Assembly (NCBI GenBank): GCA_951406725.2
Contig: OX597814.1
Coordinates: 63,736,001-63,800,000, forward strand
Length of the DNA stretch: 64,000 nt
Direction of reading: 5' to 3'
Source: Octopus vulgaris
Taxonomy: Eukaryota
A program made the translations under genes and the position numbers. The notes below the pieces were generated by a model. It searched no databases and was not told where the DNA came from. It saw only the letters and a list, made by a program, of their open reading frames with translations. Below, piece by piece: positions 2,744 to 61,290 of this stretch (position 1 is the stretch's first letter; every line of letters begins with the position of its first letter).

Positions 2744-2971
2744 ATAAGTTGATAGGTAGGTATGGACACAAATATATACTTAATAAGAAAGTTTAATTAA
2801 AAGATCATGAAAAAATACTTCATACCACTGAAAATAAATTTAAAATAATTCAAAAATGCACTAGAATTTCAACTTTATATACTTTCTAAGTATAATATCC
2901 ATCAATGTTTGCGTATAGTTTTAATGTAAAGTATATATGTAAAATATATAAAGTATATATATATATATATG

Positions 2972-3009
<38 letters not shown>

Positions 3010-3116
3010 TCGGGGTGAGTACTTGATAATTATAAGCACCTGTGTATACCGTTTAGTGGTGTAGGTGGTGGAGTAAATTGATCAAAATAAAATAAAAACA
3101 TGATGCGAAGGATTCA

Positions 3117-3194
3117 GCGGTACATATGTTTCGGGCCTTTATTAGACAGATTTATAACAATGCATAATGTATGTCTGTGGCCTTCTTCAGCCGC
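3117..3194 (-). ncRNA. Type I hammerhead ribozyme (mirror copy in left arm)
   Basis: Exact reverse complement of the motif at 3468-3545. Confidence 0.8.
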
Positions 3195-3467
3195 GCACAA
3201 CAGCTTCCACAAGGACATGTGTTACATCAAAAATTCTTGGTTGGGGATGCAAATCCTCTCATTCACGTACGACATAATGCGGCAGCAGCATAGAATTGAA
3301 GCGTCCATCTCTTTCTTCTCTCAATGTAGAATGTACATTGAGAGAAGAAAGAGATGGACGCTTCAATTCTATGCTGCTGCCGCATTATGTCGTACGCGAA
3401 TGAGAGGATTTGCATCCCCAACCAAGAATTTTTGATGTAACACATGTCCTTGTGGAAGCTGTTGTGC

Positions 3468-3545
3468 GCGGCTGAAGAAGGCCACAGACATACATTATGC
3501 ATTGTTATAAATCTGTCTAATAAAGGCCCGAAACATATGTACCGC
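3468..3545 (+). ncRNA. Type I hammerhead ribozyme with palindromic minimal stem III
   Basis: GCGG-CTGAAGA-aGGCC...GGCCc-GAAA-CATATG-TA-CCGC. Stem I GCGG/CCGC, core CUGAAGA/GAAA, GUA cleavage triplet (predicted cut after 3541). Confidence 0.8.
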
Positions 3546-3562
3546 TGAATCCTTCGCATCAT

Positions 3563-3601
<39 letters not shown>

Positions 3602-3899
3602 AAGTATAAAGTATATATATATATATAATATTAGTTTTTAAGCATGATTATTGTCATGGTCACCAAATGGTTGTATGTTTCATTAACTAATTTTACGAAA
3701 TTAAAAACAAGCTATTGGTGATTTATTGTCGAATTCATGTTTTACACATGAATTAAATTTTCACATGATATGCACATCATTTTTTAATCATGATTTTGAA
3801 TGCAAACACATTCATGGTTAATAATCATTTTGTTCTTAAATTCTATAAAATGCTTCTGCCTATTTTAATAAAAACTAAAACAAAATAATAATATATAAT

Positions 3900-6390
3900 A
3901 TAAAATGGCCACAGATTTTGTAGTATGGTTATTCATCAGAATTCTAACCAGCATTTTATAACTTGGATTCCGTAATTTCTTATATAAATTTACGATCTCA
4001 AATGAAGCAATATACGCATTTACGCATTTTCGTTCTGAATGTTTGCTAGATAATCGAGAATTTCCGTATCGATTCTTACAAAGCTCTCTATATGGCTTCA
4101 GCGAAATGCCTGGACAATACTCAGTGACATGTTTCGCATGCCGAACCTCCTATAATGGTAAGGATCTAGGTGTACAAATGTATCTATCAAGGGTCTGAAT
4201 AAGGGTTTTTTCAAAGGATGCAATGAAAGTATGTCAAATATTTCAATGTGTTTTATTTTGACCGATATTGCCTTTTGAAATACGCTGTTGATCCTTTAAT
4301 CCGACAAAGTTTGTCCCCTTTACGTTCATTCATGTAAATTTTTGCCACATGTATAGCTATCTAATTTGCTGATGATGCAGTGGGTTTGTTCACAGAATAA
4401 ATTTAGTTTATGATATCCTAAAACTAGGTTTGCATAAAAATAGGCGCATATACAAACTACACCTTAATTTTGTTGTTAGGCGGCCTGAAAGAACACAAAT
4501 AATACTCTGATGTCCATTTGTAACACGTTTCATAGTCATAAGGTCTGGTTATTCATTAGAAGTCTAACCAGCATTTGGTACCTTCGATTCAATAATTGCG
4601 TGCAATATTCTTTATAACTTTACAGTCTCAAATGAAGCAATATAAGCATTTTCATTCAAAGTGTTTACTAGCTAATCGAGAATATCATTATCGACTCTTG
4701 TAGAGCTCTGTATATGGCTTTAGCGATATGCGTGGACCATTACTCAGTGATATGTTTCGCATGCCGAGCCACCTATAATATGCTTCAAAATTTTTTTTAT
4801 CATTTGATGAGCAATATCAACATACATAACTTGAGTATAATATTTCGCATATTTGATTTACATTTGAGTATCTTTTGGTAATCCATAGAAGTTACTTGTT
4901 TTATACGATAGTCTCGTACTTTATTTGAAACTCTTTTGATAAAAATGTAATAAATTGGTGAATTGTTTCATAACTTTAGTACGTTTCTGGATTCCTCCTC
5001 CTAGCATGCTAACTACCCTGTTTGTATAATACCCTGTATCCATAAGAACAAAAATTTCCATACCGGTCTCTCGTAACTATATTTGTTTAATTTTAAATCC
5101 GTCAGAAATCTTTATTGTCCCTTGACAAATTTAGACTTGTATTGTTTCTATAGTTACTAGCCAAAATGCCGATATTTTTGCAAAATTTATCGATCAGTAC
5201 GTTTCCAATAGTTGGGATGGTATAAGCGAACTTTCGATGTTCGACGAAATTTCCAAAAACTTTCTGTATTTTCCGGTATATTTCATTCTTAATGTGTCTG
5301 TAAGTGTCACTCCTTTACTAAGTTTATATATATATATATATATGTATATTCGATTGTTAATATTTTATTCTAAATCTCTTAATACTGTGATACATTAGCT
5401 GTCCCTGTATTCCTGGTTTGGGTCTGAAATTTGATTAGTATTACGTCATTTCACTTCATTATATATATTATTAAATTTTATGATGCAATAATTTCTGTGA
5501 TCCTTTTATATTTTGTATCAATCAAAATGTTATATTTTTAAACTATTCCTTATAAATTGCTTTGTTCTTTGATTTTCCAACTCATATTTTTCTAAAATTT
5601 AGATTCCTACCTGCTGATCTATCGATTTGATTCTGCCAATGTTTACTTCTTTCTTGTGGTTTTAGAAACTACTTGTTCTAAGATATGGATTTATATTTGT
5701 CGATTTCGACCTTACAACTCAACGGTAAAGTATGTCTATGAAAATATTTCTTTTGTCATAAGACGTACTCTTTTGGCTTGTTTTGTTTTTGTCTGTGTCA
5801 GCTGGAACCACTGCGTCGTGTTTGTTTAATGATTTCAGCATAGTCTGTTTATATAATATTTTATTTTTTTAATAATTTCAGGATTGTCTTCCTGTTCTTC
5901 AAGATTTAAAACCCAACTTACACTCTTTTTAATTCTTTGTCATGAAACCTTTGTTCTAACATATTTGCTTCCATAATTTACAAATCTGGTTTAGTAAAAT
6001 CACATAACATTTTTTGAACTTCTAATAATTACTTATTCAATTATATTTTTGCATTTCTATTTACTTGCATTTTCTCTCGGTTTCTTTAATTCCATTTACC
6101 TTTTTATTTTCTCATGCAAATCTTTTGGTCGTAGTTATAAATATCTTGGTAAGACCAGTGAAATTCAGGTAAATCAACCTTCCATTTCTCAGCACATTCC
6201 ACAACCGAAAATTTCTGAGGCTAAAATGACGAGTTTGAATCTTCGATACAGGCTTATAGAATTCATGCATCACTTTCTGAAACGGTTCTCTTCAACCGAA
6301 TTTCACTCACAAGCATTGGCTTGGATTTAATCGAAGTTATAGAAATGACATTTTTTTACGATACCACATATTGGCATTGAATCCATAACC
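3900..6390 (-). pseudogene. Heavily decayed Penelope-like element RT and N-terminal region, with the RT segment present twice (~3930-4158 and ~4550-4780)
   Basis: Minus-strand translation gives IIGGSACETYH...LNENAYIASF, resembling the PLE RT motif PIIxGPxCETxxLS...LxSFDV. Many stops and frameshifts. Confidence 0.65.
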
Positions 6391-6391
6391 C

Positions 6392-6495
<104 letters not shown>

Positions 6496-7092
6496 TTGTT
6501 TGTCTACATATTTACATACACGCATATGTATGTATATATGTATGTATATGTGTATGTAACCTTGCATGAAGACATAGACGCAAGAAGACGTACATGAGGT
6601 AATATAGTTCCGTTAAATCAATATTTTGGCAATCTGTCTGTGGATTACAGATTTCTTTCCCACCAGTAAGAGGAAACCAACAAAGCTCTGTACGTAGAAT
6701 TTGTTTTAGGTACACAGAAGCTACTTGTACAGTTCTAAATGAGACTGTAAATTGAACAACGAAAACTACCTATTAAATATTGTTTGATATTACATGAAGG
6801 GATCTCTTTCACACTCATTTTTTTCTGACTCCTTTAATCATAATATTAGACGTATTATATTTAATGAACCATATCAGAAATAAATAAAAGTATTTTCGAG
6901 TCATAATTGATCGTTTGTCTATAGATGGTATCAAACAGTGTGGCGTAGATGAAACTAAGTTGAAATCCTGTTTTATATTGCTTACGAATTCTGTAGTGTA
7001 ATTGATATTAAACTTAGGTGAGAAAAGTTCAGCGGCGCAATTTTAACAAGAGACTAGTTAATTAGAAATCGGATGTATCTACATATGTATAC

Positions 7093-7258: not shown

Positions 7259-7623
7259 ATATGTATGTATGTATGTATGTATACACACATACACATTAGA
7301 TGGATATAAAAAAGTGAGGTTTATATCAAGGGCAGATATACATAGTGTTAAAAGGAAATTAATTAACTAAAATATAAATAGATAGAAATGAAAAGTTTAA
7401 GAAGAATATAGAGTTTACATATACACTTAAGACGGAAGTAAATGCTAAAAATAAGGTAAAGTATATCGATACTCTACGTTCTGTATAATTAATTTATGGT
7501 TATAATATTCTTCACTAATTTGAGCGAGTTCACAAGATCAAATAGTGGAACGAAGTGGCTGAAGCGTTTATAGTGTAACCCCATCCTAACAAAAGTAAAT
7601 AGATAAATAAAAGAAACAGCATA

Positions 7624-7999
7624 GGCGCAGGAGTGGCTGTGTGGTAAGTAACTTGCTAACCAACCACATGGTTCCGGGTTCAGTCCCACTGCGTGGCACC
7701 TTGGGCAAGTGTCTTCTGCTATAGCCCCGGGCCGACCAATGCCTTGTGAGTGGATTTGGTAGACGGAAACTGAAAGAAGCCTGTCGTATATATGTATACA
7801 TATGTATGTGTGTGTGTGTGTGTGTGTTTGTGTTTGTCCCCCTAGCATTGCTTGACAACCGATGCTGGTGTGCTTATGTCCCCGTTACTTAGCGGTTCGG
7901 CAAAAGAGACCGATAGAATAAGTACTAAAGGCGGTGCCCCAGCATGGCCGCAGTCAAATGACTGAAACAAGTAAAAGAGAGAGAGAGAGAGAGAGAGAG
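7624..7999 (+). mobile_element. Near full-length tRNA/CORE-type SINE (octopus OR-like)
   Basis: GGCGCAGGAGTGGCTGTGTGGTAAG A-box, GGTTCAGTCCC B-box, CORE-like GTGGCACCTTGGGCAAGTGTCTT, internal (TG)n, tail GACTGAAACAAGTAAAAGAGA(GA)n. More than 10 relatives occur in the window. Confidence 0.92.
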
Positions 8000-8901: not shown

Positions 8902-9164
8902 CACACGCACGCACACACTCACACATATATTCATAATATCAAAGGGAAATCAGAAATATGAGAAATTTCCATTACCAGTGGCCTAGTGTGTAGACATTTA
9001 GTCAATAGACTATTATTCATATAAATACAGTGTACATTTAAATACATAAGATGCATCCATCATATGACTCCTTGCACGCTAGAGAAAACAGTTAAATTCC
9101 AAACTACTATTAGGGATAAAATTTCGAAGGGAATGAAAAATATAAACAGTTACCTTCTAACTAT

Positions 9165-9232
9165 TGGACCAATGTTTTCAGACTTTTCTTTAGCAAATAA
9201 ATTAAGTTGCTAGGCGAAGTCTTCTTCAGCAG
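9165..9232 (-). ncRNA. Hammerhead-like motif (decayed stem III)
   Basis: Minus: CTG-CTGAAGA-AGACT...AGTCT-GAAA-acattgg-TC-CA. Confidence 0.6.
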
Positions 9233-9353
9233 GTACACCTTAGATTAAATATATATACACGAGGCAACCCAGTGTATGCCCCATGCTTATACATTCTAAT
9301 TTTTCAAATCTACCGCGCAAGCCTCGTGTATGTATATTTAATCTAAGGTGTAA

Positions 9354-9423
9354 CTGCTGAGGAAGACTTCGGCAAGCAAATTATTTTATTTCCTAAACAA
9401 ACAGTCTTAAACCATTGGTCCAG
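9354..9423 (+). ncRNA. Hammerhead-like motif (GAAA mutated to TAAA)
   Basis: CTG-CTGAGGA-AGACT...AGTCT-TAAA-CCATTGG-TC-CAG. The consensus of the two arms restores a canonical core. Confidence 0.6.
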
Positions 9424-9581
9424 GGTGTATGTTTTTTATTTTTCATTCCCTTCGAAATGTTATCCCTAATAGTAGTTTGGAATTTAACTGTTCTCTTTAG
9501 CGTGCAAGGAGTCCTATGATTGATGCCTCTTATGTGTTTAAATGTACACACACACACACACACACAGACACACACACACAT

Positions 9582-21529: not shown

Positions 21530-23060
21530 AACCAAGACAAGACGAGTATCTCAAGTCATTTGGAATATTTAATTAGAGTAGGTGAATTTGATGTAATGAA
21601 TCAATTAATTAGTTAATTAACTAATTAATTATAGGGTGTCTTACAGCTGTTTCTGTTATTTCCCAAGTGATATGTTAGCACTGGCTATTCCGTCATCAGA
21701 GACAAGGTGAGTATGTATGGAAGTTCTTGACAAGGAAATTCATAGTTTATAAGGAATAAAATAGGAGATAAAAGAATAACGAGCAAAACAGTAGCTAGAA
21801 AAATACAGACAGGAGAATAAAGTTCATGCACCATCTTCTTCCAGAGGTTGGTCTGTACTTCTGTGAAAGTCCTTAATTACAATCCCAGGTAAATCCTTGC
21901 AGTAATTTGGCAGTATTTTGAATGTTGCGTTCATGTTGAAGGAATAGATCAAATAGTTACCTAGTATGAAAATGGTCCACGTGAGTATAAAGAGAGAAAA
22001 AGACAGACATCATGATAGACAGATATTGGGTGTAAGTGAATAGAAGAGAGAGGAGAAAGAGAGAAAAGAAAGGAAGGAAGGAATGAGGGCGTGAGTAAAA
22101 TCAAAGTCGAAGATCAAAAATAAAAATAAAGATAAGATGCCAGTATCATTCCTTGTTAGAGTCGGTTCGGAGTGAAGAGGTTAGGCATTAAGGTTTTGGT
22201 AAAGCGAGAAGGAGGACAATTATGGCTATTAATTAAATAGATGAATTCTAGGTTCGGTCAGGTCAGAAAGAATATTTATTCAAGTGGTCAGTAAGGATAG
22301 TTAAAAATACACGCCTAACTCCCTTAGGAAGTATATATAAGATTAAAAATACAATTAAATAGATAAAAGATTAAAAAAGGAATAAAAAATTAAGAATTAA
22401 GAATTAATTAAAAATTAAATATTAAAAAAGCTTATTGCAGCTAGCTAGATTCTAAGATACTTATGCTGATAGATGAAAGAGAAAAAGCGTACGTATATTG
22501 TAACGACCGTGGATGTATTTAAGCAAGTTTTATGTGTGTTGATTTTGCTTGCATTTAGACCTATGGAAGAATCTGAAGGTACGGTAGAACTTAGAGAATG
22601 CTTCGTGCTGTTTATTGAGTAATTGTGGAGAATCTTGAATTAATATTTGGAGGGAATTCTTTCAGGCAGAGTGCACACGTGGGGCGCTGGACTTGGTATG
22701 GGACACCATAATCTATTATGGCCCAGGATATCCTATATGGTATTTTTCTATTTTATCAGATGGTGTATATGATTGGCTAGGGACGTGGATTTGCTTTACT
22801 CCTCATATTTAAATGAGTTCAAGTGTGCAGAATATCTCTGTTCAAAATTAATAGTAGACCCGATGTAGTGGATAGTAGAATTGTGCAATATGTTGCGTTC
22901 AATACATTTATATACCATGTTAAAACTTCTGCAATGGGCTTGTAGCAGGCTTTCCGTCCGAGACCGGCAGCTGCAGATATCTGTCTTACGTGGATTAGTT
23001 GTGGAAAGGAATTATGCTGTACTTTTATTGGACAAGCTAAAGTTTAGGGTGGTATTAGGG
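21530..23060 (-). mobile_element. 5'-truncated Penelope-like element: GIY-YIG endonuclease remnant + 3' pLTR
   Basis: Minus translation CSCRSR..HCRSFNMVYKC..IHYIGSTINFEQRYSAHLNSFKY..STSLANHIH..TCALCLKE..LLNKQHE. HHR at 21638-21703. Homologous to 50395-51640. Confidence 0.85.
21638..21703 (-). ncRNA. Type I hammerhead ribozyme
   Basis: Minus: GTCT-CTGATGA-(stem II, partly decayed)-GAAA-CAGCTG-TA-AGAC. Confidence 0.75.
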
Positions 23061-34251: not shown

Positions 34252-36184
34252 ATGAATTATCCTATGTTTATCGTCAGTATGGAAAATTCGTTGAACCGAG
34301 TCGTAGATTGGTTTACTTCTATTACTGATAAGTCCAACACTAAATTTATCCAATTCGATATATCTAGTTTCTATTCTTCAATCAACCCTATTATACTTAA
34401 TAAGGCCCTATGGCACGCACACAATAAGGCAGGCCTCTTCAGGGAGGAAATTAATGTGATATTGCCTGCTAGGAAATCTTTCATCCAGTTCGATAGCAAG
34501 TTGTAGGTCCGTAGAGATGCTCCTAATGCGTTTGATGTACTAATGGGAAGTACAGACAGCGCCCAGATAGCCGATTTGGTCGGAATTTATATTCTTTATG
34601 AAATGGCCGAGCAATTCCCGGACATCTGTGGAGGTCTTTATCGCGACGATTGTCTGCTTTACCTCCAAAACGTTTCGAATCAAAATATACAGAAGGTGAA
34701 GAACAGATTAGTTAAGTTTTTTAGTAGAATGGGCTTGCGCATCGTTTTTGACGATGAATTAACTAAAACCAACTTCTTAGACATTACCCTCAATTTGCAG
34801 AATAACTCATGCTTCCCTTATCATAAACCTTCCACAAATCTTAAGTATATTAGCCTTTACAGTAATCATGCCAGGCCAGTTACCGATAATTTGGTCAAAA
34901 ACATATCTTTGAGACTGTCTAAAATATCTGCCAATGTCGACATCTTTAACCAAAAGGCAGACTTCTATAACGCCGCCTTGTTAAAAGCCGGTTATAAGGA
35001 GAAAGTGTCATACATCGATTCAGCTTATTCTAAACCAACATCTGCTTCTCCAGATAGAAAAGTTACTCGTAATAGGAATAGTGATTTCAATTCTAATAGT
35101 GCCAGCAACCCTGTACATAACATAAATTCTTTACGGACTAAGGGAGGTAAGCGCCATTCAACCCCAAATTTCCAACCCAGAAATTTTCCCCTTACTTTCA
35201 CAAATAACACTAAGTACAATTCAAAGGCCACAAAAAACTGTATCTGGTTCGTAATACCTTTCGGAAAACAAATTAAATCGAACCTTCCCTTGCAGTTCTG
35301 TGAAGCCGTTGCTAGGAACTTTCCCAGAAATTCTAGATATCATTCTATTATCAATTCCCACATAGTTAGAATCGCTTTCTCTAACACTAGAAATCTTTCA
35401 CAAATTATATCTTCTCACAATACCAAGCTGCTAAACAAAGATTCTTCACCCGGGAGTTCCAACAGTAATCTTGCTAATTCCAACCCATCATACAATCATA
35501 ATAATAGGAATAGTATTAATAGTAATAGCATTGGTAGCAGCGATAGTGTTAACAATGATAACATTAATAATAGTATTAGTCGTGTTGATAACAATGGTAA
35601 TGTTGATGGTAATAACAATAACGGTATTATTGTTGGTGGTATTACTGGTTGTATTACCATTAATAATACTAATGATAATAGGAATAGTGTAGTTGTTGGC
35701 GCTAATAATAATAGTAACAACAATCATAGCAATAAAAACTTCGTTTCGATCTCGGAGGACAACCCCAACAGAATTAAATTTTTGTCTAGTAATTCTAAGA
35801 TTAAGTATTCTATTTACCAGTGTAGAATTTCTTCCGGTACCGATATCTTCTTCTATATAGGAGCGTCCACTTCCCAGTTATCCAAGAGAATTTCAAACCA
35901 TTATTCAACATTCAGGGATAGTAAAAAAACAACATAGTACAGGGCTAAGTAAATTAGTTTGGCGTCTTAAAGACAACAATATAAATTTCAAGTTAGATTG
36001 GTTCATACTGTCTGTATCCTTTCCTTAAGGAAAGGATACAGATAAGGGCAGGAGATTTTGTAACATTTGCAACTCTGAACTCTTCCATATTCTCTTCTCT
36101 AAGGTTCCCCTTGTAAACACACTCATAGAAAAATCATACAAATGTAAACACTGGCAGAAACATACTTTTTACTCATATAAATGA
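34252..36184 (+). pseudogene. PLE reverse transcriptase / GIY-YIG endonuclease, disrupted by TAG at 34504, a frameshift in the A-run near 35925 and a stop near 36026
   Basis: FIQFDISSFYSSI, FDVLMGSTDSAQIADLVG, GLYRDDCL, NFLDITLNL, YISLYSNH, IWFVIPF, IYQCRI..FYIGASTSQLSKRISNH, then STGLSKLVWRLKD..CNICNSE..CKHWQKH. Confidence 0.92.
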
Positions 36185-36462
36185 TAACGATAGTCACTGT
36201 GGTTGGAACAATTAGCTTAACGTTCACTCCACTTCAATAGCGAAATTCTTTCCTAAGCCTTCGAACATTCTTTCAATCAACGTACCCTTCCCTCTCCACT
36301 TGTTCCCTACCTATTATTCCTTTAACCCTTCTCTTCCTACTATCTATCTTTGACGTCAATTCTTCTAACGGTTTTTTTAAAAACACTCATTATCGTTTTG
36401 TTTATCACGTAGGCAGTCATCAAAATTTTTGTTTGTCTTGTTGTCGAGAGAGGCTCCCTTTC

Positions 36463-36542
36463 TTTCCTGATGAGAAGATTGCATAATGCACCCTTTATTC
36501 CTTTGGAATGAAACCATGTTGTCTTCGAAACATATGTCGAGA
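36463..36542 (+). ncRNA. Canonical type I hammerhead ribozyme in PLE 3' pLTR
   Basis: TTTC-CTGATGA-GAAGA...TCTTC-GAAA-CATATG-TC-GAGA. GUC triplet, predicted cut after 36538. Confidence 0.88.
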
Positions 36543-36591
36543 GTAAAGGAAATTTGTTAACATCTTCGTTCGACTCCATTCTTTCATTTAA

Positions 36592-39142: not shown

Positions 39143-41123
39143 ATGAGCAAAGAAAAAACAAGGTTGTACCAGCAAAAATTCCGAAAGGAATGGCTTAAGA
39201 TGCCAGCGTTTACTAAGTGGTTGTTTTAAGTACCTAGTGACCAGTCTGAAGCAAATTGCAGATATTGCAGATGTAAAATGTTGGCAAAGTATTCTCTTTT
39301 AGTAAGCCACCGTGATGCTTAGAAACACAAAGCATCAACTCCACAGCAAATGATTCCTCTTACTAATTTTATTAAAACCAAAAATGACAAGACATCTAAG
39401 CTTGAAGCAAATTTAGCAATGTTTATTTGTTACCACTCATCATTTAATAGCTGTGATCACTTAATAGAGTTATGTAAGAATTATATGTCCGATAGTGATA
39501 TTACATCCAAAGTGAAGTACAACAGGTATAAAATGTGCAAATGTCGTGAGAAATGTTCTAGCTCCATATTTTGATGGAGATTTGATTTCTGATATAAGAG
39601 ATAGAAAATTTAGCCTATCATTACATGAATCCAATTATATATCGATAAACAGGTTGTTAGGAATTATTATCATATATTATTGTGACACTCACAAAAAAAG
39701 TGGTACATATATATCTCAGTAGGGTATCTTTAGAAACATGTGATGCAGATGGCATTGTAGATGCCTTAAAAATTGAATTAGTGAAAAAAGTAATTAGATA
39801 TAAAAAATTTACTAGCTGTAGGAACCGACAATGCAAGAGTAATGATAGGAGTCAACAATGGTGTTTTTCAGAAATTAAAAGAAGTCCCATCATTACTTCT
39901 ATTTAGATGTGTATGTCATTCTTTACAGTTGGCAGTATCCCACACTTGTATTGAATGCTTGCCCAAAAATTTAGAATTTTTAGTATCCGAAACCTATAAA
40001 TCGTCCTCTCATTCTTCAACAAAACAACGTGTCTACAAACAACTTTACCTTGCTATAAATGATAAAGAGACTTTGAAGATCGTGAATTCTTGTACAACTA
40101 GGGGGCTGTCAATAAAACCAGCGGTAAATAGAATTGTAAGGCAATGGTTTGAATTGCGAACTCACTTCCAAAGTACAACAATAGAAGGAAAATGCTTTAC
40201 AGCACAAACGTTACATGAAATGTGTTGTGATTCTAGGAATGAACTGTACCTTTTATTTTTGCATCCAATTTTAAAACATGTTGAGGAAGTGAATAAACTG
40301 TTTGAATCAAACACTGTTGACAAAACAAAATTACTTCAAGATCTTTCAAATTTGATCAAATCTGTTGCTAATATGATAGTGTTGCCAATATGTAGAATTG
40401 ATCCTCTTGATCCGGATGCTTCTATTGAAAAATTTCTGGATCCTAAACCAAATTTAGGCTACAAGCTCGAGAGAAAGATAGCAGAAATGATTATCAAGAA
40501 GACTGTAACAGTCACCGAAGAAAATAATATTCGCAAAAGAGCACAACAATTTTTACTCTACCTATATAAAGAGCTCAAGCACCATTTACCAAGAAATATT
40601 AATATACTGAGGAATATCAAATGTTTTTCAGTAGAGAATATTTTGCAGCATTTCAAACAGCCAATTTTACCTTAGAAGCAATGCATTTAAATGAAGAAAA
40701 AGTTGCTTCAATTGAAATTCAGTTTAATAGCATTCATTTAGTTAAATGGACAAATACGTCTATTACTGAGGCATTCTGGCTGGAAGTCTTGGAATATAAA
40801 GATGCTACTGGTGGAAATCCTTTTAGAAATGTTGCAAAATTTTCCATTAATCTATTGACATTGCCAAACTCAAATGCAGAAGTTGAACGGTTGCTCCGTA
40901 GTATGGGCGTAATGAAATCAAAATGAATCTTCCTATGCTTAGATCAATACTCCCTATAAAATATCGCCTGAAAAGATATGGCAAATGTTGCAAAAACTTA
41001 GATATTCCAAAACACATAATTAACAAGATTGGGACCTTGAATGTATACAGAGGTCATGACCTAGGCACTGCAGCTGAAAGTGATCAAATCAGTGAAATTC
41101 AAGAAATTATTTCTCACTTTTGA
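39143..41123 (+). pseudogene. hAT-superfamily transposase (ZNF862-like type), multiply frameshifted
   Basis: MSKEKTRLYQQKFRKEWL..CRYCRC (Zn finger), GTDNARVMIGVNNGVFQKLK, RCVCHSLQLA (CxxH) and LPNSNAEVERL (hAT dimerisation motif), spread over ORFs 39350, 39682, 39842, 40621 and 40923. Confidence 0.9.
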
Positions 41124-42769: not shown

Positions 42770-44088
42770 CGAGAGGGTATCAAAAAGTTTCCGGACTAGT
42801 TCTGTAGCGCACTAACAGATGCCAGTACAGAGTTTCGTGCGCAGTGAGGGTTAGCAGTGATCTTCATGAGACAGTGTGTCGAGTGACATTGCTGTGTTTA
42901 CTTCACAAGTTCTAAAATTTGTCTTTTTGTGATTGTGTGTATGCTGTAATCTGCGATTTTTGTCATGGATAAAAAAAGAGAGCCAACGTGAAATTTGGTG
43001 TTGAAATTGGGAAGTCTACTACAGAGACATTGATCATACTTCGGTGAGGTTACAGCAACATGGTAAAGGGTAGTAAGCAATGTTTCGAGTGGCACATGTG
43101 CTTCAAAAGAGGAAGAACAGCCCTGGAAGACGATGAGCGATGTCGAAAACCTGCTACGAGCATCACCCCCGGGAATGTGGTATTTTACTCTTTTACACCT
43201 TTCAGTCATTTGACTGCGGCCATGCTAGAGCATTACCTTTAGTCGAATAAATCGAACCCAGGACTTATTCTTTGTAATCCTAGTGTTTATTCTACCGGGG
43301 TCTTTTGCCGAAATGCTAAGTTAGGGGACGTAAACACACCAACGTCGGTTGTCAATCGATGGTGGGGCACACAAATAGACACAAAGAAACACACACATAA
43401 ATACACACACACACACACATATATATATATACAGATACACGACGGGCTTCTTTTAGTTTCCGTCTACTAAATCCACTCACAAGGCTTTGGTCGGCTTGAG
43501 GCTATAGTAGACGACACTTGCCCAAGTTGCCAAGCAGTGGGACTGAACCCGGAACCATGTGGTCGAGAAACAAGCTACTTACCACACAGCTACGACCAAA
43601 CCGACAAACGAAATTTCAACTGTGATGTTTTGAAGCGTTTGTCTGTGTGTGTGGAGGGGGCCATTCGGCGAAAGTGATCGCATCTGTGAAGCGCGAAGCA
43701 TTGGATTCTTCACAACGATAATGGACCCTGTCACCGAATTCCCTTCACTCGTGAATTTTTCGCAATAAACAACATTGTATCGTTCCCGCACCCGCACTGT
43801 TCACCGGATTTACCACCTGCAGATTTCCATCTTTTCTCCAAGATGATAAATGCATCTCAAAGGTCATTGTTTTAACACCGTTATCGAGATTCCAGACCAA
43901 ATCACAGAAAGTCCTCGACTCGCTTACGGTAAAGGCTTCCAGGCCGGATTCGAAAAGTGGCAGAAACTCAGAGACCGGTGTATAACTGCGCAAGGTGACT
44001 ATTTCGAAGGAGATGTTGTAAAAACATAGGTAAATATGTTATTTCTTATTAAACATAACTAGCTCAGGAACCTTTTGATACTATCTCG
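42770..44088 (+). mobile_element. Mariner-type DNA transposon relic with both TIRs, internally deleted and interrupted by a SINE
   Basis: TIRs CGAGAGGGTATCAAAAAGTTTCCGGACTAG / CTAGCTCAGGAACCTTTTGATACTATCTCG. Peptides FEWHMCFKRGRTALEDDERCRKPATS, LHNDNGPCH and HCSPDLPPADFHLF. Confidence 0.88.
43183..43592 (-). mobile_element. Full-length OR-like SINE nested in the mariner relic
   Basis: Collinear reverse complement of 7624-7980 and 44660-45040. Confidence 0.92.
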
Positions 44089-44650: not shown

Positions 44651-45286
44651 TAGTAGTAGTAAGTAGCTTGTTTACCAACCACATGGTTCTGGGTTCAGTT
44701 CCACTGCGTGGCACCTTGGGCAAGTGTCTTCTACTATAGCCTCGGGCCGACCAAAGCCTTGTGAGTAGATTGGGTAGACGGAAACTGAAAGAAGCCCGTC
44801 GTATATATGTATATATATGTGTGTGTGTGCGTGTATGTTTGTGTGTCTGTGTTTGTCCCCCCAGCATTGCTTGACAACCGATGCTGGTGTGTTTATGTTC
44901 CCGTCACTTAGCGGTTCGGCAAAAGAGACCGATAGAATAAGTACTGGGCTTACAAAGAATAAGTCCCGGGATCGAGTTGCTCGATTAAAGGCGGTGCCCC
45001 AGCATGGTCGCAGTCAAATGACTGAAACAAGTAAAAGAGTAAACCCATTACAATTCAAAAGCCAAATAATATTTATAAGCAAAAACCGTTACTTAGCTTT
45101 ACGATGAAAATAATATAACTGAATTTTAAACGTAAAAATATATATACATAGGATTTTGCTTATAAATATTATTTGGCTTTTGAATTGTATTTGATTATTA
45201 TTATTGTTGTTGAAGTATTATTTTTATATATATTTTATTGATAGTTATAAGTTATGATATCTATTTATTTAGAATGCTTTAGTATT
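44477..45286. repeat. Fold-back inverted repeat whose left arm is interrupted by (AAT)n and a SINE
   Basis: 44480-44585 pairs with 45193-45281 (AAAGCATTCTAAATAAATAGA..TATCATAACTTATAACTATCA). 45049-45087 pairs with 45151-45189 (TACAATTCAAAAGCCAAATAATATTTATAAGCAAAA). Confidence 0.88.
44658..45040 (+). mobile_element. OR-like SINE, young and slightly 5'-clipped
   Basis: Near-identical to 7624-7980, and includes the CTGGGCTTACAAAGAATAAGTCC segment missing there. Confidence 0.92.
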
Positions 45287-50394: not shown

Positions 50395-51640
50395 AGAAGA
50401 AAACGCAAAAACCAACCAGGGCAGAACAAATATCTCGTCATTTACAATAATTCAATTAAGGTGAATTTGAAGTCTTACAGCCGTTTCAGGGATAACCCAA
50501 GTAGTAGGCTAGAATGTCCACGCACTGGGTATACCGTCATCAGAGACAAGGTATGAAATTTCTAGGCAGTGAAATTTAGAGTTTACAAAGAATAAAACAG
50601 AAGAATAAAAGAATAAACAGAAGAATAAAGAGTAAATGTAATTAGAAAAATACAGGCGGGTGAATAACGTTAACAACTCATCGTTTGTTAAGGGATATGG
50701 ATGTTGGTCAGAACTTACATGAAGTTAAAGGTCCATGTTAAAATCCTAGGTAAATCCAAGTGGTATTTTCGCAGTATTTTGAATAACGTATTTATATTGA
50801 AGCGATAGATAGTATGTAAACGTGTATGTAGAGCGTGATAGTAAGATAGACATAAATGGGTTTTGTGAGTGGGTGTATATGGGAAGAAAAAGAGAGAAAG
50901 AGAAAGAAGAGAAAGGAATAAAAATAAGATATGGTAAAATGGGTAAAAAATAAAAATGAAATAAAGGTAATGTTTGAGATACGTCGGTATTGCATCAGGG
51001 TGAGAGGTCAAACGTTAAAGTTTCAATAAAGTGCGGGTGGACGGCCAATCTATGTAAGATTACAAAGAACAATAATTTAGTGGTTAGTACAGATATCTAA
51101 AAGTATATTTCAAGCTTAATAAGAATTAAATGATATAAGTTAAAGGATTAAGGATTAAAGTTAAAACTTAAATCAAAATTAAAAGCTAATACTTAAAATT
51201 ATAAACTAAGAGCACTAAAAATTATTGAATTGGAACTAGCTAACTTCTCAGATACTTATGTTGATAGAGAGGTAGAGAAAAAGGAAAAGGAAAAAAAATT
51301 CGTACATATATTGTTACAACCGTGTATGGACATATGCACGTTTTATGCATGTTAATGTTGTTTACATTTGGACCGATGGTGCGATAGAACTTATGATGAC
51401 ATGTAGCGAAACCTTTGTGCTGTTTATTTAGTAATTGCGGTGAATTATTTATTAATATTTGGAGGTCTTCTTTTACGCATAGTCCACATGTGGATCGCTG
51501 GTCTTTGCATGGCAAACCTCTTTCCTCAAAATCATATTATATTTCGGCCTATATTATTATAGACCGTCTGAGGTGTGAAATTTTGCGTGCATTTAATTTC
51601 AACTATTCTCATTTATAAGTGTATTGCTTATTACCAGGTA
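50395..51640 (-). mobile_element. 5'-truncated PLE (GIY-YIG tail + pLTR), same family as 21530-23060
   Basis: ORF 51240-51515 STCGLCVKEDLQILINNSPQLLNKQHKGFATCHH. The pLTR aligns with 21540-21960. Confidence 0.85.
50472..50547 (-). ncRNA. Type I hammerhead ribozyme
   Basis: Minus: GTCT-CTGATGA-cGGtATACCCA...TGGGTTATCCct-GAAA-CGGCTG-TA-AGAC. Confidence 0.78.
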
Positions 51641-60353: not shown

Positions 60354-60748
60354 TCAGGGTGTCCAAAAAGATTTGACATAATTTGAGATGTCCATATCGG
60401 AATGACTACATGTCTAAGAAAAATTAAACTTAATAGGGTTAATGTTGAACATAACAAGCTTTATCCTACAGATTTCCAACGAAAAATACAGTGAGATGGT
60501 AATTTTATAATGTTCAAAATTTATCACTGTTCTCTGAGATGGTGTAGAACACATCCAATTTTGGTGAATCCTTTTCTTGTTCAACTATGTCCTATGGATT
60601 TTCTTCGCCACAAATGCGAACATTTTATTTGTTCACTTTGCCATTCGTATGGAGTGTGGCTTCGTCGCTGAAAATAGGACGGTTTTCAAAGTTGTCATCT
60701 TCAAGTTTCTCTTGCATATCTTCACAGAATGTTTTACACTTTTGTTTG
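60354..60748 (-). mobile_element. Tc1/mariner-superfamily relic (first catalytic Asp region + TIR-like end)
   Basis: FCEDMQEKLEDDNFENRPIFSDEATLHTNGKVNK*NVRICG. CAGGGTGTCCAAAAAG at ~60355 is TIR-like. Confidence 0.75.
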
Positions 60749-61290
60749 ACATTTTTGTACATGATATTTTTGGTTTTTCCTTCAGGAGCATAGATGAATA
60801 AGTTGTCTCGATGGCTAACTCTGGAACTATCGACGTAGAACTGTCCATGTGAAAAGCATGACTTTCGAAAGTCCAATCCGACAACTTTCAGCGATTGAAC
60901 TTGTGCTTTGTTGATTGTCATAGCGAAGCTGAGTTTGAGAGGGAACTGAAGTCTTCGCATACGGTAGAAGCAGTGTGTTGGGGTTAGCAGAATTTCCAGA
61001 ATAAAATCGGTATTGTTTTTGCCATGTCCCATGATGATTTGGGATTGAATGACATGATCCATCATTTGTTTAACCACAAGACGATTTCCATTGCATAGTG
61101 TGGGTGCGTTTAGATTGCGTAGCAGAATGACAGGGCACCCGACTTTTAAGTGAAGTTCATGGGGAGGGAGTCCTGGGGGATGTTGGGAGCTGAGAAATTC
61201 TGTTGGAAAGCGTGTAACCTGATCGAGGTCAGTGACGGTGTCAACTTATCTGTAACAACGTTCTTGGGAAGGTAGCTTACTGAGTAAGTC
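60749..61290 (-). pseudogene. Helitron-type PIF1 helicase C-terminal fragment
   Basis: LKVGCPVILLRNLNAPTLCNGNRLVVK..RLQFPLKLSFAMTINKAQVQSLKVVGLD..FSHGQFYVDSSRV..KTKNIMYK. Confidence 0.88.

Follow-up and report, generated by a model that had tools for sequence, protein, structure and literature searches.

Complex insertions of EN+ Penelope-like elements (PLEs) have been described as carrying an inverted 5′-truncated copy or an inverted pLTR together with a tail at one side (PMC8557442, Fig. 2 legend; PMC3846280, accessible sections). Self-priming on an antisense template was proposed in PMC3846280, and the accessible sections of both papers name the origin of tandem and inverted PLE structures as an open question. 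Section 11 of PMC8557442 describes a Hydra clade, in which DKG is changed to DKT, CxCX5C and CxxC/CxH are present, RWK lies near the N-terminus and CCHH is missing. Members of this clade insert into (TA)n and are generally <3 kb, a tendency rather than a rule.

Biochemical information comes from a Poseidon PLE protein, which cuts and extends both strands in vitro (Frangieh et al. 2024, PMC11167929, accessible sections). According to those sections, the protein is predicted to be a dimer, reverse transcription starts internally, at two positions between which the tail lies, and the endonuclease cuts ATT in the element's own pLTR on both strands. The hammerhead of that element is dispensable for insertion and is active only with the protein. 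PLE hammerheads in general are described in the available part of PMC4209133 as type I, with a 4-bp stem I, an extra base before stem II and a small palindromic stem III that is predicted to require a dimer; in Schistosoma, dual motifs lie on opposite strands 100-700 bp apart. The pLTR of Drosophila Penelope contains an Inr and a DPE (RGACGTGY), as stated in the accessible text of PMC2377424.

We analysed a window of 64,000 nt from Octopus vulgaris (contig OX597814.1, positions 63,736,001 to 63,800,000 of the forward strand) in which a first-pass annotation had pointed out a hairpin. Apart from a single mismatch (3265/3397), arms 3096-3328 and 3334-3566 pair throughout and leave five bases unpaired between them, just as annotated, and with 233 paired bases chance is no possible explanation. 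The insertion itself is not the symmetric 471-bp unit that had been described. It occupies 3004-3566 (563 bp) and is asymmetric, since the left arm goes on alone through 3004-3095. The statement that the hairpin is embedded in (TA)n is accordingly correct for the right arm, which meets (TA)n at 3566, but on the left the extension intervenes before the repeat, so that the order across the insertion is (TA)n, long arm, short arm, (TA)n. The five bases taken for a loop are parent-element sequence. The locus is non-coding, as noted earlier: no parent ORF is found there. A crude ORF scan, which leaves an intron still possible, recognised no host gene in the window or in the 10 kb before it. Coordinates are given in Table 1.

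Table 1. Features of the insertion in window positions; in parent coordinates, 0 is window 3334 on the plus strand and window 3328 on the minus strand
Feature	Position	Strand	Remark
(TA)n target tract, left	2932..3004		
Long (tail-bearing) arm	3004..3333	-	parent pLTR/5′ leader, from -5 to the tail end at +324
One-sided extension	3004..3095	-	'tail' and the T-rich stretch preceding it, about 90 extra bases
Mirror hammerhead motif	3117..3194	-	layout
Arm mismatch	3265	-	position 63 of the left arm; CpG, C to T
DPE-like GGACG	3302..3306	-	sequence; +27 to +31 from the A at 3332; mirror copy 3356-3360 on the plus strand
Five unpaired bases	3329..3333	-	parent -5 to -1; includes A (window 3332, minus strand)
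Short arm	3334..3566	+	parent pLTR 0 to +233; ends in the second 3′-end zone (+233 to +254)
Type I hammerhead motif, PLE kind	3468..3545	+	motif only; predicted cut 3541/3542
(TA)n target tract, right	3566..3631		target-site duplication indistinguishable inside the microsatellite

The long arm (3004-3333) is 99.1% identical to the pLTR of a full unit found at another locus (L094), and its extension stops at the commonest 3′ end of the Penelope-like family. The C-to-T change at 3265 is a haplotype marker in other family copies as well. Palindromes are a known artefact of amplification and of long reads, and an assembly or library chimera formed by read fold-back could on general grounds produce such a structure. 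We consider this hardly credible for the present locus: the flanks are dissimilar, the arms end at the two biological 3′ ends of the family, each with its own (TA)n, one mismatch separates them, and a single rule holds across 69 pairs of the kind described below. The window hairpin is a real and ordinary insertion, and its architecture of inverted pLTRs, one-sided tails and opposite-strand hammerheads is already published.

Two origins had been offered for the hairpin in the first-pass annotation. The first, a fresh inverted Penelope-like insertion, is supported, and its coding parent was identified. Locus L094 contains an entire unit of 4,684 bp, made up of a pLTR, an ORF, a 1.77-kb 3′ region and a second pLTR. 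The ORF extends from an ATG near 4357 to 6866 (about 2.5 kb, with one frameshift) and contains RT and, at its C-terminus, GIY-YIG, an assignment that rests on motifs and feature clustering because Pfam matched neither RT nor GIY-YIG on the ORF and a PDB sequence search with the protein did not recognise RT. The motifs are YRDD and DKT (PADKTG in P0001) and, by eye, a CxCX5C linker and CxxC plus CxH around conserved E and N, without CCHH. By features, the EN region lies close to GIY-YIG clusters (0.94-0.96). RW is present in the N-terminal region with A as the third residue (RWA, not RWK). The hairpin arm corresponds to the parent pLTR/5′ leader, about 400 bases upstream of the ATG. The region after the ORF (L094 6870-8630) is unusually long and of low complexity; it contains (TG)/(TA) tracts as well as two blocks that are self-complementary in part.

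The family is young and very abundant, with well over a thousand pLTR copies. The first 26-mer of the arm has 627 exact matches and the 3′ 24-mer of the ribozyme 1,780, and all 233 bases of the right arm are identical at 39 other places among the 40 scored of 1,461 candidates. Several properties agree with EN+ PLEs, namely a single ORF for RT and GIY-YIG flanked by direct pLTRs, a hammerhead motif in the pLTR, and an inverted 5′-truncated copy at the 5′ end with a one-sided tail (67/69 pairs). Compared with the Hydra clade as set out in the accessible part of PMC8557442, the parent shares DKT, the C-terminal GIY-YIG without CCHH, CxCX5C and CxxC/CxH, the hammerhead near the 3′ end and the (TA)n targets; it departs in having RWA instead of RWK and a length of 4,684 bp owing to the 3′ region. 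By eye it resembles Hydra-1_Obim of Octopus bimaculoides from the same source. Four short motifs of the parent family are absent from the PMC8557442 supplement, so the family is distinct from Hydra-1_Obim. Judged by its protein motifs, the parent would be a Hydra-type Penelope-like family that is apparently unlisted.

We also compared the insertion with the complex EN+ PLE insertions in the accessible sections of PMC8557442 and PMC3846280. Head-to-head pLTRs, a tail at one end only, an AT-rich or (TA)n target, 5′ truncation and an Inr-like pLTR motif are common to both. In contrast to those insertions, the window locus has no coding body, both arms being pLTR only, and the tail stretch is about 70-90 nt in the window family versus 30-40 nt. 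Counts of tail/short pairing, of nesting or of a 5′ hot spot are not given in those sections.

Nearly all of the 79 copies on contig 1 have their 3′ ends near +233 to +254 or near +322 to +334, followed by (TA)n; the three exceptions are a +29 stub, an end at +188 and one copy running into the ORF. Short-ended single copies with (TA)n on both flanks are common (L204, L205, L208, L211 and L216). Among 69 distinct simple head-to-head pairs, which are a non-random sample with many chosen as hairpins at the window's site or as identical to the arm, 67 combined a tail arm with a short-ended arm, two were short with short and none was tail with tail (binomial versus 0.5, 4e-18). The short-ended arm extended >30 nt further 5′ than the tail arm, by up to 4.1 kb, in 21 of these 67; the tail arm was longer in 22, and the 5′ ends lay within 30 nt in the remaining 24. 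In the 21 non-nested pairs neither arm is a plain copy of the other, and simple self-copying of one cDNA is thus excluded there. Near-symmetric pairs also occur far from the start site, at -1906/-1999 (counted as non-nested), -359/-364 and -112/-103. Starts at -52, -404, -512 and -897 were set aside as alignment limits or subfamily divergence.

When LINE-1 inserts by twin priming, each end of the target primes on the RNA, and head-to-head joining of the two cDNAs gives arms that share no overlapping sequence. In the window family, unlike this, overlap of the arms is usually complete, and the arms begin at two fixed sites. Three tail arms (L212, L217 and L218) stop at +241, +264 and +265, which by analogy with twin priming is about where the inner primer would sit. 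In 46 pairs, 70 variants were common to both arms of the same locus; 500 permutations gave 10.3 on average and never more than 28, which indicates that both arms came from one source.

The 5′ ends are concentrated as well. On contig 1, 29 of the first 100 copies start within -11 to +12 and 19 in the next 175 bases; three of the 29 represent one tandem duplication, and 27/98 are left after its removal. Many copies begin at -4, the A of TCATTC (window 3332, minus strand), and the pile-up is situated some 140 bases upstream of the ribozyme. Over the whole genome, matches that start at -4 with a non-C before them number 70, compared with 10 at the control position +90, and inspection confirmed true junctions in 29 of 30 at -4 versus 4 of 10 at the control. 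TCATTC is an Inr-like motif, and the spacing of GGACG is one base short of the Drosophila DPE spacing. Position -4 is likely to be a putative transcription start at which RT runs off, as the motifs suggest. An argument against this reading, by analogy with the accessible account of Poseidon in PMC11167929, is that the ATT at this position may also be an endonuclease cut motif. A G precedes -4 in 35 of 70 matches, and this was considered as derived from the cap; the excess is strong against base composition, but the control is no lower (4/10 raw, Fisher p 0.74; 3/4 among its true junctions). Of nine joins to (TA)n-like flanks that were inspected, only three have an untemplated G, and a copied cap is retained as no more than a weak hint. 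The right arm has no Inr, and the promoter-like centre of the hairpin faces outward; a promoter at this place would yield sense RNA only.

The two fixed 3′ ends, the tail/short rule, the non-nested arms, the common variants and the 5′ pile-up, together with the in vitro reaction of the Poseidon protein (PMC11167929), favour priming from two strands over self-priming. The insertion is a non-coding head-to-head pLTR pair, and we think that it was probably produced by a single insertion event in which both strands of a cut (TA)n target primed RT on RNA from one source. The GIY-YIG domain would cut both strands within (TA)n, after which one 3′ end would prime at the tail site (+324), while the T-rich site further in (+233 to +254) would serve the other. 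At the window locus synthesis of both cDNAs may have begun within the transcript's 5′ pLTR and run off at the Inr-like A (-4). The two short cDNAs resulting from this run-off would then be joined head to head through their 3′ ends after trimming of a few bases, and filled in. Under this scheme, arms that overlap fully would require either strand displacement or a pair of RNAs from the same locus, and the 24 near-symmetric pairs need a shared broken RNA end or a fold-back.

The window locus fits either model, and it is the family that provides the argument for two primings. Being nested and symmetric (-5 and 0), it is explained equally well by fold-back of a single cDNA. In that explanation the hairpin is a dead product of the same parent, formed when the 3′ end of a single cDNA folds back and primes a copy of that cDNA; the endonuclease later takes the tail off one strand as the intermediate is resolved. 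Head-to-head palindromes are interpreted in this way in the accessible part of PMC3846280, and the tail is attributed to endonuclease resolution in that of PMC8557442. Arms whose 5′ ends lie within 30 nt (24/67 pairs) and variants common to both arms also agree with self-priming, as does the ability of the Poseidon endonuclease to cut ATT in its own pLTR on both strands (PMC11167929, accessible sections), given that ATT begins the -4 site too. We nevertheless regard it as rather unlikely. For the 21 non-nested pairs of 67, it requires that the target-attached first strand lose its tail and then become re-attached to (TA)n. The short-ended single copies flanked by (TA)n point instead to direct priming at the inner site, the tail arms ending at +241 to +265 are not predicted, and the microhomology at the junctions is 0 to a few bases, with several loops too tight for a hairpin.

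The annotation had listed two hammerheads. A type I layout is indeed present on the plus strand, with its mirror on the minus strand, but the fold is marginal by computation. The motif consists of a 4-bp stem I, a CUGAAGA core, one additional A, stem II (GC-rich and long-looped), GAAA, a 2-bp stem III with a palindromic loop, and GUA with the predicted cut at 3541/3542. In type, stem I length, extra base and palindromic stem III it resembles the PLE hammerheads in the available part of PMC4209133; it differs from them in the length of loop II (about 40 nt) and in forming the G10.1-C11.1 pair only if a C bulges out of stem II. For the minimal 78-nt stretch our calculations give a three-way junction, at -11.8 kcal/mol in a shifted register with an open A.C and at -8.4 kcal/mol in the register that keeps G10.1-C11.1 and requires the bulged C. 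With a few flanking bases a different fold is best and the stability is not above that of shuffled sequences (z +1.0). Such a marginal predicted fold fits the weak, dimer-type motifs of animal PLEs reported in the same part of PMC4209133. Rfam gave zero matches at the gathering score in the whole window and, by E-value, 21 weak matches in 2900-5000, none of them a hammerhead family. Matches to miRNA precursors were rejected as they simply reflect the perfect stem of the hairpin.

The suggestion that ribozyme and antisense arm compete does not describe a real switch. The computed probability of stem I pairs in read-through RNA is about 1e-87, and the ribozyme is predicted to be unable to fold in the hairpin RNA. 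It would be silenced in such RNA because the antisense arm is transcribed first from either side, and the hammerheads are best described as passengers of the pLTR. Read-through RNA would form a 233-bp duplex, a plausible substrate of ADAR or Dicer on the modelled fold. If host transcripts read through such loci, these would be sources of perfect 230-bp dsRNA against the family. Contigs from 4 of 24 sequencing runs over L094:3760-4900, which carry no start, end or strand information, contained no strand-change joint. Over the same interval, a contig of depth 3.4 showed three A>G differences, which were considered as RNA editing and provide no evidence of it.

The second origin offered by the annotation, a self-contained palindromic ribozyme retro-unit, is not supported. 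Under this reading the hairpin is a non-autonomous retrozyme that is transcribed, processed by its hammerheads and re-inserted whole. The check proposed for it was whether the loop-spanning junction is unique or shared. When this was run, the exact junction of the window hairpin was found once, as a one-off event would leave it, yet hairpin formation recurs at one site, and the either/or test is too simple. A looser pattern found 12 places with fold-backs at the same site and many different junctions, and both arms begin within 15 bases of the site of the window hairpin in 18 of 69 distinct simple pairs. Some recurrence speaks for copying as a unit: one junction occurs at four places (L055, L057, L058 and L063) and another at two, and a few loci have multiple fold-backs (L182 and L183). 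However, loci with the same junction differ in haplotype (43T/221G in L055, 224T in L057, four changes in L063), and each haplotype is common to the two arms of its own locus.

The different junctions and haplotypes imply that at least 18 look-alike hairpins arose independently. The distance that separates head-to-head arms varies continuously, from 0 to over 4 kb, and this continuum, with the diversity of junctions and haplotypes, indicates that hairpins are remade repeatedly from single-arm templates. Among the inverted insertions that are usual in the family, the pLTR hairpins form the short extreme. Like the animal non-LTR retrozymes of bioRxiv 10.64898/2026.07.22.740005, the window insertion is short, non-coding and PLE-derived and has a type I hammerhead. 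Those published retrozymes are direct tandem repeats, unlike the inverted pair found here, which is made anew from a coding parent; no tandem array with a hammerhead in each unit is present at the window locus. Together with a ribozyme that is predicted not to fold in the hairpin, these points make the retrozyme reading highly improbable, and it is already close to refuted. The window locus encodes nothing, is not copied as a hairpin and is likely without activity. In L182 (738-1585) and L183 (669-1448) several successive strand changes occur at the same start site, and L060/L061 have one hairpin with a third arm in tandem.

The window hairpin itself is minor, being one of at least 18 such stubs seen. 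The counts obtained for the family discriminate between models (67/69 tail with short, 21 non-nested, arrest at the inner site and a sharp 5′ hot spot). They allow a more general proposal, which we put forward tentatively and at somewhat less than even chance: PLEs may insert two-endedly, with an RT-endonuclease dimer priming both target strands on one source's RNA, always the one strand at the tail site and the other at the inner site, followed by head-to-head joining. If so, inverted pLTRs, one-sided tails and hairpins would be normal products of one mechanism, and each pLTR-only hairpin would be a pair of run-off ('strong-stop'-like) cDNAs from which the cap site could be placed to the base. 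No statement of such a model was found in the literature searched, which consisted chiefly of non-subscription papers. As far as the accessible sections of PMC11167929 go, Poseidon PAc has an AT-rich target like that of the window family, and its two internal RT start sites match the two genomic 3′ ends; the cutting and extension of both strands, a feature of Poseidon PAc in vitro, is what we propose for the window family. Poseidon PAc belongs to a different clade, and those sections make no link from two-strand extension to inverted genomic copies. Near-intact copies of the young family offer material for in vitro study, and the family would be a ready system for the two-ended model.

Other elements were observed in the window. 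A second Hydra-like PLE fragment lies at 34507-35934 (+); over 305 aa its RT/thumb shares 35% identity with the parent protein, and an Asn-rich linker and the start of a GIY-YIG-like region are present. At 36460-36560 (+) there is a hammerhead-like motif whose palindromic stem III is the same as in the hairpin motif and which is followed by (TA)n. Two related hammerhead-like motifs of a third family, at about 21610-21710 (-) and 50450-50555 (-), have the core CUGAUGAC, GAAAC...GUA and an AGAC stem I, and their minimum-energy folds are not hammerheads. A diverged direct duplication (3923-4156 / 4543-4779, spaced by about 620 bp, 83-90% in three blocks) carries a minus-strand GAAAC..GTC motif without a clear CUGANGA.

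The remaining observations concern other repeats. A 520-bp MITE-like element at 9030-9549 has inverted arms of 117 nt (93%) and a 286-nt spacer with a further inverted repeat. The inverted pair 43184-43585 / 44656-45043 (about 400 bp, 82% identical) probably represents two copies of a dispersed repeat. An ORF fragment with a Pif1 2B domain (E 8e-16) at 60628-61245 (-) is presumably Helitron-like. A 293-aa frame at 39794-40672 (+) resembles a DNA transposase remnant, with no Pfam match at cut-off. A tRNA-like SINE-type repeat with microsatellite spacers is found at 7600-7980 and at many other places.
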